A DNA stretch of 64,000 nt from Acidimicrobiales bacterium (GCA_039915945.1 JBDSMH010000017.1:1824-65823); one strand, 5' to 3'. Counted from the stretch's first letter, positions 15,333-61,575 are shown. The notes: generated by a model from the letters alone, not told the origin. Made by a program: numbers and translations.

Positions 15333-15472
15333 GGTCGCCTTCGTTTTGGCGTGACGGCCAGGCGATCTGCGGCACACCAGCGGCACCGCTGAGAGCTGCT
15401 GCCTCCCGGCCCTGACTCGGTTCACGGACGCTCGTTGCACAGGACCCGACCGTCACACCAAAACGAAGGCGA
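15333..15472 (-). ncRNA. ffs: signal recognition particle RNA (small bacterial type) with extended closing helix
   Basis: The minus strand contains GUCAGGGCCGGGAGGCAGCAGC (domain IV motif; compare GUCAGGUCCGGAAGGAAGCAGC in E. coli 4.5S). The termini form a 24-bp helix GUCGCCUUCGUUUUGGUGUGACGG/CCGUCACGCCAAAACGAAGGCGAC. It lies directly upstream of dnaX, as in Bacillus. Confidence 0.75.
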
Positions 15473-15531: not shown

Positions 15532-15619
15532 GGAGAGCTGGCCGAGCGGACTAAGGCGCACGATTGGAAGTCGTGTGTGGGGCAACTCACCGTGGGTTCG
15601 AATCCCACGCTCTCCGCCA
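15532..15619 (+). tRNA. tRNA-Ser (anticodon GGA), CCA encoded
   Basis: Hand-folded cloverleaf. Acceptor GGAGAGC/GCUCUCC, anticodon stem CACGA/UCGUG with loop UUGGAAG, long variable arm, T-loop GUGGG-UUCGAAU-CCCAC. Confidence 0.92.
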
Positions 15620-17731: not shown

Positions 17732-17821
17732 GGAAGGTTGCCAGAGCGGACGAATGGGACAGTCTCGAAAATTGTTGTGGCCTCCGGGTCACCGAGGGTT
17801 CGAATCCCTCACCTTCCGCCA
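17732..17821 (+). tRNA. tRNA-Ser (anticodon CGA), CCA encoded
   Basis: Acceptor GGAAGGU/ACCUUCC, anticodon stem ACAGU/AUUGU with loop CUCGAAA, long variable arm, T-loop GAGGG-UUCGAAU-CCCUC. Confidence 0.92.
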
Positions 17822-40346: not shown

Positions 40347-40420
40347 GGGGACGTAGCTCAGCTGGCTAGAGCACCTGCTTTGCAAGCAGGGGGTCGTGGG
40401 TTCGAGTCCCATCGTCTCCA
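40347..40420 (+). tRNA. tRNA-Ala (anticodon TGC), CCA not encoded
   Basis: Acceptor GGGGACG/CGUCUCC with a G3:U70 pair, anticodon stem CCUGC/GCAGG with loop UUUGCAA, T-loop GUGGG-UUCGAGU-CCCAU. Confidence 0.92.
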
Positions 40421-40549
40421 CTCATTTTCCCGTATTTGGGGCGGCCGCAGGAGGTCTGCCTCCAGATCAACCCGGCGGTTGCGGGCTGCGCCGTGAAACG
40501 TCGCATGACACTCCGTGCCGCCCGTCGAGCGCCCCCATCGCATGCGGCT

Positions 40550-51385: not shown

Positions 51386-53407
51386 TTAGATGGTCTCGAC
51401 CTCGACGAGGTTGTCGCAGAACGTAGGCCCATTGGCAAGGTCGCCGAGCGAATCATTGGTGAGGCTGTTTGCCCCCGCTGTTTCGGGATCGCCGCGCCAA
51501 CGGCCAAACGGGACCGCAACCGTGCCTTCTGGGACCTTGTCGGTAACGGACGCGGTACATCGAATGCGTCCGAGATCGTTGTAGACGCAGATGCGGTCGC
51601 CGTCGGCGATGTCTCGCGCCGCCGCGTCATGCGGATGGATCTCGGCCTTTGTCTCTGGTTCCGCGTTGAGCAAGACAGGAAGACTTCCGTACGACGAGTT
51701 GATCGAGTAGTGCCGCTTGAGTGTGAGGAGCCGCAGTCGATAGCCGCCCGCAGCCGATGGTGTATTGGCGGGTGGACGGTATTCGGCGACCGGATGCAGG
51801 CCGGTCGAGCCCAGCGCGTCGCAGGAGAACGCGAACGTCGCGTCCGCCGATATCGCGGTGCCTATTGGCGAGCCAACTCTGAGGAAGCCCGCGTCTCGCA
51901 GAGCAACCGCAGTTGCGCCGGCAGCATCGGCGGGTGAATCTGCGAGCGCGAGCTCCATCAGCTGATGGTCATCCAGGCGGAACAACGCTTCAGTGAAACC
52001 GAGTCGCGCCGCGAGGAGACGGGCGACCTCGGCGTTGGCCTTCGATTCGCCGACCGGAGCGATGGCTGCTTCGTTCCATGAGAGGTAAGAGAATCCCCAC
52101 GAACCGACGAGATCGGCATGCTCCAGCATCGTGGTCGCGGGCAGCACGATGTCCGCGTGTCGCGCGGTGTCGGTGAGGAACTGGTCGTGCACGACGGTGA
52201 ACAGGTCGTCCCGGCGCAGACCTTCGAGCACGAGCTGTTGGTTGGCGGCAATGACCGCCGGGTTGCTGTTCCACACGTACAGCGCTCGAATAGGAGGGCG
52301 CATCGCGGGGTCGGTGAGTACGCGTCCCAACTGGATCATGTTGACTTCGCGTACGCCCGTAGGTTTGAGGTCTGGTCGCGCCAACGATGGCAGATTGACC
52401 TGACCGATCGACACTGCGCCGCTGATCCCTCCGGCCGGCCACTGCCATTGGCCGGTGAGCGCAGGCAGGCACTGGATTGCTCTCAGCGCAGTGCCCGCAT
52501 TTGTCGACCGTTGCATTCCGACGCCGATGCGAATCGCAGCCGGCCGCGCCGTTGCATAGAGATGCGCGAACTCGGTGATGTCGTAGACGGTGCAACCAGT
52601 CTCCTGTGCCGCCCGTTCAGGAGTCCATCGCTCGACAGCGGCGCGGTACTGGTCGATGTCGGTTGTATGCCCGGTGACATACGCATCGTCTTGTAGCCCG
52701 TCACGAAAGATGATGTGAGCGGCCGCGAGTGCAAGTGCGCCATCGGTGCCGGGATGCGGGCGTAGGTGAATGTCCGCGTACGCGGCCGTACGACTGCGGT
52801 AGGGATCTATCACAACGAGTTTGGCGTCACGTTCCTTGCGGGCGCGTCGAATGAGTTCCCATGTGTGGATGGATGTCGCGACCGGGTCCATCCCCCAAAC
52901 GACGACGGTTTCGGCATCGGGCAGGTTTTCGGGATCAGACCAAGGCCAACGCGTCAACCCGGTCAAGGCGAACCACTGCGGCCCGCAGATCGACCGCTCG
53001 AGTTGCGTGGCACCGAGCCGGTTGAACACTGCCTGCATCGTGCCGAACCCGTCCAGCAGACCCATCGATCCCAAGTACGAATATCCGAGAATCGCCTCTG
53101 CGCCCTCCGCCGCGATGATCGATCGCCATCGCGTCACAATTTCGTCGAGTGCCTCGTCCCATCCGATGGCTTCGAACTCACCGCCTCCTTTCGGCCCGCT
53201 GCGGCGCATCGGCGACAGCAGCCGGTCAGGGCTGTAGACGCGCTCCAAGTAGCGATCAACCTTCACACAAAGATGACGTCCGGTGACAGGATGCGATGTA
53301 TCCGCTCGGATATCAACCGCTCGGCCGCTCTCATCGACAGTGACGAGCGCACTGCATGCGTCGGGACAATCGTGGGTACAAGTGATCCGCACGGACTGAT
53401 GTGCCAT
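51386..53407 (-). CDS. molybdopterin-dependent oxidoreductase (MopB superfamily)
   Basis: 673 aa. N-terminal Cys cluster CTHDCPDAC...C, a molybdopterin-binding core and a C-terminal beta-barrel (ICVYNDLGRIRCTASVTDKVPEGTVAV). Confidence 0.88.
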   Translation of the reverse strand: MAHQSVRITCTHDCPDACSALVTVDESGRAVDIRADTSHPVTGRHLCVKVDRYLERVYSPDRLLSPMRRSGPKGGGEFEAIGWDEALDEIVTRWRSIIAAEGAEAILGYSYLGSMGLLDGFGTMQAVFNRLGATQLERSICGPQWFALTGLTRWPWSDPENLPDAETVVVWGMDPVATSIHTWELIRRARKERDAKLVVIDPYRSRTAAYADIHLRPHPGTDGALALAAAHIIFRDGLQDDAYVTGHTTDIDQYRAAVERWTPERAAQETGCTVYDITEFAHLYATARPAAIRIGVGMQRSTNAGTALRAIQCLPALTGQWQWPAGGISGAVSIGQVNLPSLARPDLKPTGVREVNMIQLGRVLTDPAMRPPIRALYVWNSNPAVIAANQQLVLEGLRRDDLFTVVHDQFLTDTARHADIVLPATTMLEHADLVGSWGFSYLSWNEAAIAPVGESKANAEVARLLAARLGFTEALFRLDDHQLMELALADSPADAAGATAVALRDAGFLRVGSPIGTAISADATFAFSCDALGSTGLHPVAEYRPPANTPSAAGGYRLRLLTLKRHYSINSSYGSLPVLLNAEPETKAEIHPHDAAARDIADGDRICVYNDLGRIRCTASVTDKVPEGTVAVPFGRWRGDPETAGANSLTNDSLGDLANGPTFCDNLVEVETI

Positions 53408-55567: not shown

Positions 55568-55612
55568 GGTCGATCGTGTTGCAGCCCGTGCCATCACCGT
55601 TAGGATTTCACT

Positions 55613-56080
55613 GTGCTTGCACCTGGTGACCCCGCTCCCGATTTTGCCCTGTTGGATCAAGACGAGCGCGTAGTGCGCCTCGATGATCTGCGCGGCTCAT
55701 GGGTCGTTCTGTGGTGGTACCCCAAAGCGTCGACCGGCGGTTGAACGCGCGAAGGCCAGGGCTTCCGTGATCGAAGCCCAGAATTCGCCGAACTCGGTGC
55801 CACGATCGTCGGAGCCTCGTTCGACACACCTGCAGACAACAAGATCTTCGCCACGAACGAGCAGTTTGGCTATCGCCTACTTTCGGATGTCGACCGCGTC
55901 GTCGGTCACGCGTACGGCGCCGAGCGCAACCCCGACGAGAACAACCCGCACTATCCCAAGCGCATGTCGTTCGTGATCGACCCCGACGGCGTCATCGCGC
56001 GTGTGTACGAAGTCGCCGATGCCGGCGCACACCCCGACATCGTGCTCGAAGACCTGCGTCGCCTCACTTCGACCGTGTGA
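55613..56080 (+). CDS. Bcp/AhpC-TSA peroxiredoxin with in-frame TGA (55742-55744) at the peroxidatic Cys position: candidate selenoprotein or fresh pseudogene
   Basis: AGGA RBS plus GTG 55613. VLAPGDPAPDFALLDQDERVVRLDDLRGSWVVLWWYPKASTGG-TGA-TREGQGFRDRSPEFAELGATIVGASFDTPADNKIF...RLLSDVD...MSFVIDPDGVI. There is only one stop in the 155 codons. Confidence 0.6.
55759..55779 (+). other. SECIS-like hairpin candidate
   Basis: GGGCUUC-CGUGAUC-GAAGCCC forms a 7-bp stem starting 14 nt after the TGA. The apical loop begins 24 nt from the U of UGA and contains GU. Confidence 0.35.
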
Positions 56081-57283: not shown

Positions 57284-58564
57284 TCACGTCGCATTGATCC
57301 AACCGGCCCGACCCAACGTGTCTCCGTCCGACGATGTCAACACCGACGTGAGCGTGGTGCCATCGGGTCCAGGCTCCTCTGGCGCGTACTTGTACGGCAC
57401 GGCGATCGGTACTTTCGGATCAGGATCGAACAGCGGGCAGAAGCGCGCGTTCTTACGGAACACGTTGCCTCTCGCGGTGATGTGGCTGATACCGGTCACG
57501 CCGAGTGAGCCGTAGTTCACGACATGGATACCGCACGGATCACCCCCGTCGGGCGGCTCGATGACGTTGTACTCGGTCCAGACCCATGCGTCGCCGCCGA
57601 ACTCCTGGCCCGCGCTCGCCTGCTCATTGCCGCGCAACCCATAGCTGTCGACATAGTTGTTGTAGAGATGCCCGTCCGAGTCGGTGACGAGTGGATTCCT
57701 CACTGCGTTGCCCTGGAACCAATTGTGATGAATGGTGACCTGGATGCGGTGCAGACTGCTCGTCCAACCGCCACCCTTCTCGTTGTTGCCCGTCTGATCG
57801 CCGATCAGCACGGCCTTACGCGTCGTCGAGATGTGCGAGTAAGAGATCGTTCCGCGCATCGGCCCTTTATCACCGCGCGAGACCTCGATGGCTTCGTCGT
57901 TGGCCGACGTGATCTCGACATGCGTGATGAAGAAACGATCTGATCCCCAAACCACACGAATGCCGTCGCCTGATTGGCCATCACCGCGTCCGGGGACCGG
58001 GCCGATCTTCACATTCGTGATGATCACGTTTTCGTTCGCGCGTTCGCCGAAGTAGCCGACGAACAAACCCCCTTCGGCGGACCGCGACGGTTGGACGTGG
58101 ACGTTGGAGCACCGGCCGTCGAGTGTCGTGTTGTTCCCGATCTGAATCGCCGAGTTGAGACCGATCACCGTCTCGCGAACGGCCGGAAATACCGTCTTGT
58201 CGAAAGTGACCCAACGCCCGCCCTGTTCCAAGCCTTCGCGCAACGTTCCGGCGCCCGAATCGGCGGTCGAGGTCACTACGTAGAGTTGCCCGTCGATGCC
58301 CGCACCGTTCGTCTCCGCCAGCTTCGCGAACCCATCGACCTGCTCGAGCAGTAGGTCGCGCGACACGTTGTCACCGAGCGCCGCGCAGAGATCGATCCGC
58401 GGTTGCGTGGTCGCGACGATGGGCGCCGGCTCTGATGTACCGACTGAACCTGGACTCGGCTTCAGATCAACCGGGTCGCCGGAGCAACCAAACACAAAAA
58501 TCGTCGGCACGGCGGCGACCAACAGCCAACAAACTCTCCTGCGGCGGGGACTGCGTTTCGCCAT
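57284..58564 (-). CDS. secreted lipoprotein, pectate lyase-like right-handed beta-helix protein
   Basis: ATG 58564 gives MAKRSPRRRRVCWLLVAAVPTIFVFGCSG (lipobox). ...TSTADSGAGTLREGL...GDGIRV...NDEAIEVS...RNPLV...LYNNY pectate lyase-type motifs. The upstream 322 codons of the 749-aa track ORF are rejected. Confidence 0.8.
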   Translation of the reverse strand: MAKRSPRRRRVCWLLVAAVPTIFVFGCSGDPVDLKPSPGSVGTSEPAPIVATTQPRIDLCAALGDNVSRDLLLEQVDGFAKLAETNGAGIDGQLYVVTSTADSGAGTLREGLEQGGRWVTFDKTVFPAVRETVIGLNSAIQIGNNTTLDGRCSNVHVQPSRSAEGGLFVGYFGERANENVIITNVKIGPVPGRGDGQSGDGIRVVWGSDRFFITHVEITSANDEAIEVSRGDKGPMRGTISYSHISTTRKAVLIGDQTGNNEKGGGWTSSLHRIQVTIHHNWFQGNAVRNPLVTDSDGHLYNNYVDSYGLRGNEQASAGQEFGGDAWVWTEYNVIEPPDGGDPCGIHVVNYGSLGVTGISHITARGNVFRKNARFCPLFDPDPKVPIAVPYKYAPEEPGPDGTTLTSVLTSSDGDTLGRAGWINAT

Positions 58565-58667
58565 GTTCTTGCGTCCCTCTAGCTCCTCAGCAGCGTTCAA
58601 AAATCTACCCTTACGTAAAGGTACAGTCCAAGGGAGACCATGCTGTGTTGTTTCGTGAAAGGTTGCA

Positions 58668-58853
58668 ATGCCAACGACCAATGACATCGTCGTCGTCACC
58701 GGCGCCGCGAGTGGTATCGGTGCCGCGCTGGCCCGGCGGCTCCACCAACGGGGTGCTCGCCTCGTACTCGCCGACATCGATGTCGACAACTTGCGCGAAC
58801 TCGCCGACGAACTCGGCGCGGCCGCGCGGTGGTTCGGCTCGGCGCTGACGTAG
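58668..58853 (+). pseudogene. 5' fragment of an SDR oxidoreductase gene (first ~55 codons only)
   Basis: MPTTNDIVVVTGAASGIGAALARRLHQRGARLVLADIDVDNLRELADELG, then junk and a TAG stop. No remainder of the SDR fold lies downstream. Confidence 0.7.
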
Positions 58854-59266
58854 GTCGGTCGATCAGTCGTCGTCGCGATACGCACGGCGACGCGGTCGTT
58901 GCAACGCGCGTTCCAAGCGATCGTCTCGGCCGTGCGCAAAGCCGCAACAACGCTCGGCCACTTGGCCCGTGCAGCCGCGGTTCGATTCTGGACCGCCGGC
59001 GCGGCTCTTGCGCGCGCACTGACCCGGCCTGTCGCCGCGCTGGTCCGAGATCCGAAGAGCGCGACGGCGTGACCTACGGCCCGACCAATGACGCGAACCG
59101 CCGCGCTGACCGCCTTCGCGGCGGCGCGGAGCGCGGCCAGTGCGCGGCGGCCCAGCGCGACAGTGGCACGTGCCGCAGCGCGCATGGCGGCCGCGACCGC
59201 CGTGGTGAAGGAGCGGACCGGGAGAAGGACTCGCTTCAGGACTGTTGCGATGGCTCTGGCGGCGGC

Positions 59267-59543
59267 GCGTAGCGCGACGAGCAAACGGCGGCCGAGTGCG
59301 AGGGTGGCGCGCCCTGCGGTGCGAAGTGCGACTGCGCCGGCTTTGGCGAACGCGCGCACTGCGACCGCGCACCGCTTGACGATCGCAAAGATTGTCCTAG
59401 TAGCGGTGCGAATCGGTGTCGTACCGGTGCGGGCAACCATGCGTAGTGCGACGAGTAGACGGCGGCCGAGTGCGAGGGTGGCGCGCCCGGCGGTGCGTAG
59501 TGCGACTGCGCCGGCTTTGGCGAACGCCCGCACTGCGACGGCG
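59267..59543. repeat. direct repeat, two 103-bp copies (about 92% identical) at a 174-bp (58-codon) period inside an Ala/Arg-rich array
   Basis: 59267-59369 aligns base by base with 59441-59543, with 8 mismatches by hand. A more diverged third unit lies at about 59093-59266. Confidence 0.85.
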
Positions 59544-60318: not shown

Positions 60319-61575
60319 ATGAAGACATCCGCCGTGCCGTTGCGCCGTCTGTTTGCCGTCGTGCTCGCGATCACAATGGGAGGTGCGGTGCTCTCCTTGG
60401 GAGGCACTGCGTATGCCGCCGATGTGGCCACGGTGCCGCTTGGTACATCGGTCAACTATTCGGTGCTTGGTGGATCGACGGTGACCAACACCGGGGCCAC
60501 CGTCCTCCACGCCAGCCTCGGGCTTTCGCCCGGCACGTCGATCACCGGCTTTCCACCGGGATTGGTCAACGCGCCCGGCACCACGGACATCGCAAATCCG
60601 GCCGCGCAACAAGCGCAGGTAGACCTCACCGCCGCGTACGTCAACGCTGCCGGTAGACCGATCAACGCCACGACGACCGCCGATCTCGCGAACCTCACAC
60701 TCGTAGGAGGTGTCTACTCCGGGCCCAGCAAGTCGCCGCTGAGCCTCACGGGGCCGCTCGTCCTCGACGGGGCCGGCAACAACGACACTGTGTTCATTTT
60801 CCAAACCGACTCAACGCTGACCACGGCATCGAGCAGCACCATCACGCTGATCAACGGCGCGCAAGAGTGCAACGTCTTCTGGCAGGTCGGTAGCTCGGCC
60901 ACGCTCGGAACGGGCTCGGTCTTCGCCGGCAACATCTTGGCGCTGTCGTCGATCACGGTAACCACCGGCGTAACCGTGCATGGCCGGGCGCTCGCCCGCA
61001 ATGCTGCGGTGACGTTGGACAACGACACCTTCACCGTGCCGACTTGTGCGAACACGATCACCGGCGGACGTCAGGCACCTCCCACGACCACCCCACCCGA
61101 GGCACCCGTCGCTCAGCCCGGAACTCCCACTGGGCAACTCGGTGTGCCGCCAACGAGCCTCGCCTTCACCGGCCCCCGCATCGTGTTGCCGCTCGTACTG
61201 GCCCTCGTGTTTCTCACGCTCGGCGCCGCCGCGCTGACCTTCGACCGGTCACGCGCGCAGAGGCCCTACGGCCCGACGCTCAGAAATACAGGTGCCAAGG
61301 CGAACGAACTGCGCCACGATGTTGCGACATCGCCGAGTGCAGGAGGTCGACGTTGGCTGGTCTCGAAGCAAGCACCCCGGTCACTACCGAACGTGAGTTG
61401 CGCGAACTACTCGGCCATCCAGGGCCTGGCGTCGCCGCCAAAGACCGCCCGTCGCTCGATGACTACGACCGACAGTGGCTCGCACACTCGCCGTTCTGTC
61501 TCGTCGCAACATCGGCTGCCGACGGCACGTGCGACGTATCGCCCAAGGGTGATCCTCCCGGGTTCACCTTCGTAG
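60319..61575 (+). CDS. DUF3494 (ice-binding-like beta-helix) surface protein with signal peptide and LAFTG sortase signal
   Basis: Signal peptide ...GGTAYAA. VNYSVLGGSTVTNTG...GLSPGTSITGFPPG...VFIFQTDSTL...NVFWQVGSSATLG...GRALARNAAVTL. LAFTG plus a TM segment plus DRSRAQR ends at about 61270. The frame then runs on for about 100 low-quality codons into the next gene. Confidence 0.8.
   Translation: MKTSAVPLRRLFAVVLAITMGGAVLSLGGTAYAADVATVPLGTSVNYSVLGGSTVTNTGATVLHASLGLSPGTSITGFPPGLVNAPGTTDIANPAAQQAQVDLTAAYVNAAGRPINATTTADLANLTLVGGVYSGPSKSPLSLTGPLVLDGAGNNDTVFIFQTDSTLTTASSSTITLINGAQECNVFWQVGSSATLGTGSVFAGNILALSSITVTTGVTVHGRALARNAAVTLDNDTFTVPTCANTITGGRQAPPTTTPPEAPVAQPGTPTGQLGVPPTSLAFTGPRIVLPLVLALVFLTLGAAALTFDRSRAQRPYGPTLRNTGAKANELRHDVATSPSAGGRRWLVSKQAPRSLPNVSCANYSAIQGLASPPKTARRSMTTTDSGSHTRRSVSSQHRLPTARATYRPRVILPGSPS

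Follow-up and report, generated by a model that had tools for sequence, protein, structure and literature searches.

A 64-kb stretch of Acidimicrobiales DNA (the window) contains a gene at 55613-56080 which very probably encodes a peroxiredoxin of the Bcp/PrxQ type with selenocysteine (Sec) as its peroxidatic residue, inserted at a UGA codon at position 44. This reading was reached from the DNA of 162 homologous loci, the window among them. Nearly all of these loci carry the same in-frame TGA, in a reading frame that is conserved as protein on both sides of it and is followed by a hairpin of the bacterial SECIS type. The coordinates of the features are collected in Table 1.

Table 1. Features located in the window
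Feature	Position	Strand	Basis or remark
Bacterial small SRP RNA	15353-15451	-	
tRNA-Ser(GGA)	15532-15619	+	
tRNA-Ser(CGA)	17732-17821	+	
tRNA-Ala(UGC)	40347-40421	+	
Putative Shine-Dalgarno sequence, AGGA	55602-55605	+	read from the sequence, 7 nt 5' of the GTG; function presumed
Predicted Bcp/PrxQ-type peroxiredoxin selenoprotein CDS	55613-56080	+	155 codons including Sec44, then terminator
Active-site motif P37-K-A-S-T41-G-G-U44 (PxxxTxxU)	55721-55744	+	translation
UGA codon 44 at the peroxidatic-Cys position, predicted to be read as Sec	55742-55744	+	structure alignment and homologous loci
Putative bacterial SECIS core hairpin	55759-55779	+	7-bp stem and 7-nt apical loop, within codons G-F-R-D-R-S-P
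Codon for Arg117, presumed active-site Arg	55961-55963	+	invariant column in the homologue alignment
True terminator UGA, without a SECIS behind it	56078-56080	+	translation

The reading frame and its predicted product

Translation from the GTG start to the terminator meets a single interruption, the in-frame TGA at codon 44. The ORF track, which splits the gene there, contains only the 43-aa N-terminal piece (55613-55744). With Cys substituted at the TGA, the 155-residue product matches the Pfam family AhpC-TSA (PF00578) with an E value of 1.9e-32 (112.2 bits; cutoff 26) and the family Redoxin at 2.1e-15. The AhpC-TSA alignment pairs residues 4-130 with positions 1-123 of the 124 in the model, and the frame stays open, with family-typical sequence, for about 112 codons past the TGA. 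Solved structures of Bcp/PrxQ proteins (2ywn, 3hjp and 5epf) gave matches of about 1e-18, and in the alignment to them the TGA falls on the peroxidatic Cys. The next in-frame start codon is an ATG at 55964, 74 codons past the TGA and with only 38 codons remaining; a restart close to the TGA is thus absent. The first-pass annotation had described the gene in these terms – a complete Bcp/AhpC-TSA frame of 155 codons, split by a TGA exactly at the catalytic Cys, open behind it and lacking a nearby restart – and each part of that description was borne out.

The predicted active site has the PxxxTxxU motif, which is present in 151 of the 152 Sec-type homologues. Arg117, presumed, as in peroxiredoxins generally, to have a catalytic role, lies in a column that is invariant in the homologue alignment. 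Since Pro37, Thr41 and this invariant Arg are kept, the product should be an active peroxidase. The window protein contains no Cys at all, and has Gln at +5 from the catalytic residue, the position of the resolving Cys in atypical 2-Cys Bcp. Nearly all homologues have Q, R or K at +5; none of the 152 Sec forms has the classical Bcp resolving Cys there, and 93 of them are free of Cys. A single Cys was found at +19 in 42 of the 152 Sec-type homologues, and at +47 (LLCDVD) in nine.

Scores against the curated NCBIfam models were all below the respective cutoffs: 100.5 bits for the Bcp equivalog PRK09437 (cutoff 140), 82.1 bits for PrxQ NF053650 (cutoff 260), and 51.4 bits for PrxU NF040737 (cutoff 270). 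Because the equivalog cutoffs are missed while the best PDB matches are to Bcp/PrxQ proteins, the predicted protein has a subfamily resemblance to Bcp/PrxQ and is not an equivalog. Nor is it an orthologue of PrxU.

Conservation of the TGA codon and of the hairpin behind it

The homologous loci comprised 80 from GTDB species genomes, 80 from soil-metagenome contigs, one from an ENA contig, and the window itself. Nearly all of the named genomes belong to Acidimicrobiales or Ilumatobacteraceae, or are Actinomycetota classified less finely. The proteins, the window's own left out, were 51-89% identical to that of the window. The codon in the peroxidatic column was TGA in 158 of the 162 loci and TGC in the other four; TGA was carried by 78 of the 80 GTDB genomes, 78 of the 80 metagenome contigs, locus L081 and the window. 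Each complete TGA locus had 108-164 open codons past the TGA, reaching the normal C-terminus of the family, and further stops or frameshifts were absent from all loci. Among the nine closest loci, pairwise dN/dS was 0.07-0.25 3' of the TGA and 0.03-0.49 5' of it. By these rates, the region 3' of the UGA is translated and under purifying selection.

The protein search returned the gene in halves. Two N-terminal fragments (P0064 and P0065) stop exactly at ...WYPKASTGG, and C-terminal fragments of 91-113 residues start shortly past that point, a pattern typical of a stop codon that gene callers cannot read through. A global reassignment of UGA was considered and ruled out, as UGA terminates 109 of the 152 Sec-type genes, the window's included. 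UGA being the usual terminator of these genes, it is one specific UGA that is recoded and not the genetic code that is reassigned.

The Cys forms (L058, L072, L108, L110, L164 and P0001-P0014) make up one coherent subclade and scattered singletons, nested among the Sec forms. The homologue P0003 (JGI sample 3300071358, a contig of 1009 bp) is recorded with Trp in the peroxidatic column, in STSG-W-TAEGRGFRD; its codon there is either TGG, or a TGA that a gene caller translated under genetic code 4.

The window gene has syntenic orthologues in loci L001, L002, L081 and L084 of Acidimicrobiales MAGs, with which it shares the gene order PAP2/DAGK protein, peroxiredoxin, AI-2E transporter; the neighbours of the window gene are 89-90% identical to those in L001. 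The MAG that contains L001 (JBDTLT01, Acidimicrobiales cluster3_bin.108) also contains L003, so some genomes hold two copies of the Sec-peroxiredoxin gene. Identity to the window protein is 89% for the paralogue at L001:7441 and 72% for that at L003:1408, and both have the TGA and the hairpin.

Two other genes near the locus were recorded. A gene for an ice-binding-like protein (PF11999) is found at 60319-61575 (+) in the window, at L081:12841-13749, and in L084 and L002, with its position a few kb downstream of the Sec-peroxiredoxin gene conserved among related Acidimicrobiales contigs. On the opposite strand of the window, at 57284-59533 (-), is an ORF of 749 aa with only one Pfam match, a pectate lyase at residues 498-631. 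The N-terminal ca. 330 residues of this ORF are rich in Ala and Arg and contain the near-exact repeat RAFAKAGAVALRTAGRATLALGRRLLVALR twice, and the real start probably lies well downstream.

Behind the TGA of the window, the stem GGGCUUC/GAAGCCC (55759-55765 with 55773-55779) closes the loop CGUGAUC (55766-55772). Counting the U of the UGA as nt 1, the 5' arm of the stem occupies nt 18-24, nt 25 is the first of the apical loop, and the whole hairpin spans nt +18 to +38. Its minimum free energy (MFE, ViennaRNA) is -12.0 kcal/mol and the spacing from UGA to loop is 21 nt. The published bSECIS model (PMC13188914) has a loop of 3-9 nt, an upper stem of 4-16 bp, a UGA-loop distance of 16-37 nt, an MFE of -7.5 kcal/mol or lower, and a G at loop position 1 or 2, with G or U as the usual next base. 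The window hairpin agrees with the model in every one of these respects, its loop having G at position 2 and then U, and so the SECIS-like spacing that had been noticed in the first-pass annotation was confirmed.

The hairpin is conserved along with the TGA. Nucleotides 25-29 read CGUGA in 150 of the 158 TGA loci and CGGGA in the remaining eight, and the MFE fold of nt 13-45 (ViennaRNA) gave a hairpin whose loop starts at nt 25 with CGUGA in 146 of the 158. The distance from the start of the loop to the 3' arm is 5, 6 or 7 nt, with a one-base bulge in the arm in some cases (about 20 loci), which means that the structure is kept while its register against the reading frame shifts. In the class with a 7-nt loop (42 distinct sequences), 99.0% of cells were paired, 22 cells had double changes, and two pairs covaried (G-C/C-G and U-A/C-G). 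In the class with a 5-nt loop (52 sequences), 99.5% of cells were paired, 41 cells had double changes, and four pairs covaried. None of 500 shuffles reached the score of either class, and in a control in which the 3' partners were slid by one to three columns pairing was only 15-63%. The Arg codon in the loop is CGU in 150 of the 158 loci, versus 15% of the Arg codons in seven window genes; elsewhere, synonymous sites are heavily substituted, with a dS of 0.4-1.4 between even the closest loci.

The four TGC loci lack the hairpin, and have CGCGA, CGGGA or CGAGA at nt 25-29. L164, the closest Cys form for which there is DNA, encodes the identical peptide TREGQGFRDRS after the catalytic residue, but does so with the codons TTT-CGC-GAT-CGG, which disrupt the stem and leave the loop without its U. 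As the same peptide is encoded without the hairpin, the hairpin is not a by-product of the protein sequence, and goes with the UGA. When the 69 nt 3' of the UGA were folded as a single sequence, the MFE was -23 kcal/mol, with a z score of -0.82 relative to shuffles; single-sequence folding is uninformative in a genome of 64-66% GC, and significance was drawn from the comparison of homologues. No Rfam family, SECIS or other, matched the hairpin, at either the gathering threshold or a permissive one. A comparison of relatives for TGA or TGC, and for the hairpin, was one of the checks that the first-pass annotation had proposed for its Sec-peroxiredoxin candidate. Its outcome – 158 loci with TGA, four with TGC, and a hairpin maintained by compensatory changes in the former and missing from the latter – favours that candidate. 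At the level of the genes, the comparison demonstrates a recoded UGA, a downstream frame under selection, and a covarying hairpin specific to the loci with the Sec codon.

Decoding of the UGA codon in the lineage

Searches for selA, selD and tRNA-Sec, by tblastn and ARAGORN, found none in the 64-kb window or in ca. 1.5 Mb of homologous flanking DNA. The tblastn queries were SelA, SelB and SelD of E. coli, and the targets were the window and all 162 loci. A true selB was likewise missing from the window and the flanks, where matches to SelB were limited to the generic GTPase domain. Two GTPase genes of the window were examined as possible SelB genes and rejected, since Pfam identifies them as EF-G-like and RF3. 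None of the three tRNAs of the window is tRNA-Sec.

The lineage does have the Sec trait in published data. Ilumatobacter coccineus, I. nonamiensis and Candidatus Microthrix parvicella are listed as SelD+/SelA+/SelB+ in Tables S1/S2 of Peng et al. 2016 (PMC5029168). The known selenoproteins given there number 15 for I. coccineus, 10 for I. nonamiensis and 7 for Ca. Microthrix parvicella, the largest selenoproteomes among the Actinobacteria entries consulted in that table. The first-pass annotation considered Sec unusual for a genome of actinobacterial type, which does not hold for Acidimicrobiales in view of these organisms.

Further candidate selenoprotein genes were found on the contigs that carry the Sec-peroxiredoxin gene, each with a TGA at a known Sec position and a SECIS-like hairpin. 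In an Acidimicrobiales MAG, ca. 4 kb from the Sec-peroxiredoxin gene, L018:9890 (-) is a gene of the UGSC family with its TGA at the U of U-G-S-C; the protein scores 127.4 bits against NF041046 (cutoff 125) and 145 bits against PF24696. In an Acidimicrobiia MAG, L037:2973 (-) is a PrdB/GrdB-like gene with a TGA in LLTPT-U-PLC and a hairpin of 7 bp with the loop GGUCG at nt 21; it scores 127 bits against TIGR04483, which is under the cutoff of that model, and 31.6 bits against PF07355 (GRDB). In three loci – L027:8562 (+), L117:4374 (+) and L157:1276 (+) – a gene with rhodanese and CBS domains lies 190-230 nt downstream of the Sec-peroxiredoxin gene on the same strand. Its reading frame is interrupted by a TGA five residues past the rhodanese Cys (VIVYCWDSA-U-DLSPRAAW), with a hairpin of 8 bp (CGGGCCGC/GCGGCUCG, loop GUG at nt 24) behind it. 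The two genes may form a two-selenoprotein operon.

Within the window, a crude scan gave 13 same-frame ORF junctions and no convincing second selenoprotein gene; a hairpin was present at only one of the junctions, and the composition there was non-coding-like. A molybdopterin oxidoreductase of 673 aa (domains Fe4S4, Molybdopterin and Molydop_binding) is encoded at 51386-53407 (-), 2 kb upstream of the locus. Its ORF has no TGA interruption, which rules out a Sec-type formate dehydrogenase here.

An alternative is that the UGA is read through without Sec, either because the hairpin stimulates decoding by a near-cognate or suppressor tRNA (for Trp or Cys) or because Cys is carried on tRNA(Sec). 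This is very unlikely. The hairpin fits the model of a SelB-type SECIS in loop size, in the position of the G-U and in spacing, and the G-U of the loop is fixed at synonymous sites. Trp, the residue recorded for P0003 and thus a point in favour of read-through, would abolish the activity of a peroxidase if placed at the catalytic position, yet selection acts on the active-site motif. Sec at residue 44 is itself a reading of the nucleotide sequence, which leaves some room for another amino acid; however, the lineage has other classical selenoprotein genes, cultured members have SelA, SelB and SelD, and UGA terminates most of the same genes.

The first-pass annotation had given as its own alternative a very recent nonsense mutation, from TGC or TGT to TGA, in the gene of a Cys-peroxiredoxin, which would leave a pseudogene and a coincidental hairpin. 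The conservation across the 162 loci refutes this. A TGA is only one base from TGC or TGT, but here it is kept at one codon through homologues with 51-89% protein identity, in a frame that is intact in every locus and under selection downstream (dN/dS 0.07-0.25). The hairpin, though not significant by single-sequence folding, covaries and is absent in the Cys loci. The divergence of the homologues also excludes assembly artefacts of one sequence, and with the absence of Sec machinery from the window as the remaining point on its side, this explanation has a negligible probability. A naturally split gene, in which the first 43 residues form a peptide of their own that assembles with an independently initiated C-terminal protein, leaving no residue 44, is just as improbable: gene callers do annotate two fragments in many homologues, but the next in-frame start in the window is 74 codons on, the stretch between the TGA and the starts chosen by the callers is conserved as protein, and the catalytic residue would be missing.

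If Sec is inserted at codon 44, as we favour, the process would resemble the established bacterial pathway, and by analogy with it would depend on SelB and tRNA(Sec) and incorporate selenium. The mRNA hairpin, which spans nt +18 to +38, would present to the ribosome an apical loop with G26-U27. SelB-GTP-Sec-tRNA(Sec) would bind this loop, and decode the UGA in competition with RF2. Translation would then go on for 111 codons to the second UGA, which is hairpin-free, and end there by normal termination. With the PxxxTxxU site and Arg117 but without Cys, the product would be a '1-Sec' peroxidase. Peroxide would oxidise the Sec to a selenenic acid, which would be reduced again by an external thiol protein, probably thioredoxin. 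The lack of a Cys at +5 or elsewhere points to a cycle of this 1-Cys type (1-Sec), with the external reductant as its presumed second step; the peroxidase activity and the thioredoxin-like reductant are what the conserved residues would lead one to expect.

Relation to known peroxiredoxins and SECIS elements

The window gene is, by its predicted product, a mis-annotated member of the known Sec-peroxiredoxin (Sec-Prx, TxxU) family, and Bcp/PrxQ-like. A Sec-containing peroxiredoxin family of the COG1225/Bcp type, with TxxU, was reportedly described by Kryukov and Gladyshev in 2004. The family has thus been known since 2004-2005, and the first-pass annotation was right to call Sec-peroxiredoxins an established class. 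In the Sargasso Sea data, 43 Sec-Prx genes were assigned to COG1225 (Zhang et al. 2005, PMC1088965), and the 2016 count (PMC5029168) has 91 proteins from 78 organisms. PxxxTxxU is the named motif of Sec-Prx (review PMC13188914). Repeated switching between Sec and Cys has already been described for the family, and the nested Cys forms found here fit that description (PMC1794560).

Like the window gene, members of the COG1225/TxxU family have the AhpC/TSA fold, a PxxxTxxU motif whose Sec replaces the peroxidatic Cys, a SECIS within the coding sequence past the UGA, and widespread Cys homologues. Compared with the family by description, the clade of the window is set apart by Sec in ca. 97% of the sampled loci, by members that are mostly Cys-free, and by a fixed CGUGA loop at +25. 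It is possible, though to us slightly more doubtful than convincing, that this is a distinct Sec-dominant clade of Bcp/PrxQ specific to Acidimicrobiales, aerobic Actinomycetota of soil and water. In such a clade Sec would be the default (ca. 97% of loci) and Cys the product of repeated secondary switches, most members would be Cys-free, obligate '1-Sec' enzymes, and the SECIS would be the clade's own, with a near-invariant CGUGA at fixed +25, uncaptured by NCBIfam or Rfam models. What might be new, as far as a known family can be compared by description, is a clade that is nearly all Sec, mostly Cys-free and very uniform in its SECIS.

With no curated NCBIfam or Rfam model to capture such a clade, public MAG annotations would systematically split the gene in two. 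Both the window gene and its orthologues in Acidimicrobiales genomes and soil metagenomes, well over a hundred in number, appear in annotations as two fragments or are missed. The mis-annotation under-counts the antioxidant repertoire and the selenium dependence of an abundant actinobacterial lineage of soils and waters. The signature of a UGA, 21 nt, and then stem, CGUGA and stem offers a simple rule for repairing annotations. The understanding of Sec decoding and of peroxiredoxins is unchanged by these findings. If the proposal of a Sec-dominant, mostly Cys-free clade is true, the clade would be a clean natural system for asking what Sec gains over Cys in the reduction of peroxide by aerobes, for example resistance to over-oxidation.

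Cys-type Bcp/PrxQ proteins (E. coli Bcp, and the structures 2ywn, 3hjp and 5epf) share their fold, and their active-site Pro, Thr and Arg, with the predicted window protein. They differ in having a peroxidatic Cys and a resolving Cys at +5, where the window protein would have Sec and no Cys. PrxU of Eubacterium (Peptoclostridium) acidaminophilum, said to have been characterised by Sohling et al. in 2001, is to our knowledge the only biochemically characterised Sec-peroxiredoxin. It has Sec at the peroxidatic position, as predicted for the window protein, and is thioredoxin-dependent. PrxU belongs to a different subfamily, being an AhpC/Prx1-like protein of ca. 233 residues from a strict anaerobe, whereas the window protein is Bcp/PrxQ-like, has 155 residues, and comes from soil Acidimicrobiales.

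In the fdhF gene of E. coli, the G-U of the apical loop (G23/U24) is recognised by SelB. The fdhF SECIS resembles that of the window: it too is a hairpin within the coding sequence, directly behind the UGA and with G-U in its loop. The window spacing falls within the SECIS consensus of 16-37 nt. The two hairpins have no sequence similarity, and the G-U of the window is at nt 26-27 instead of 23-24; its recognition by SelB is a prediction. Unlike in fdhF, a bulged U is not required in most members of the window family.
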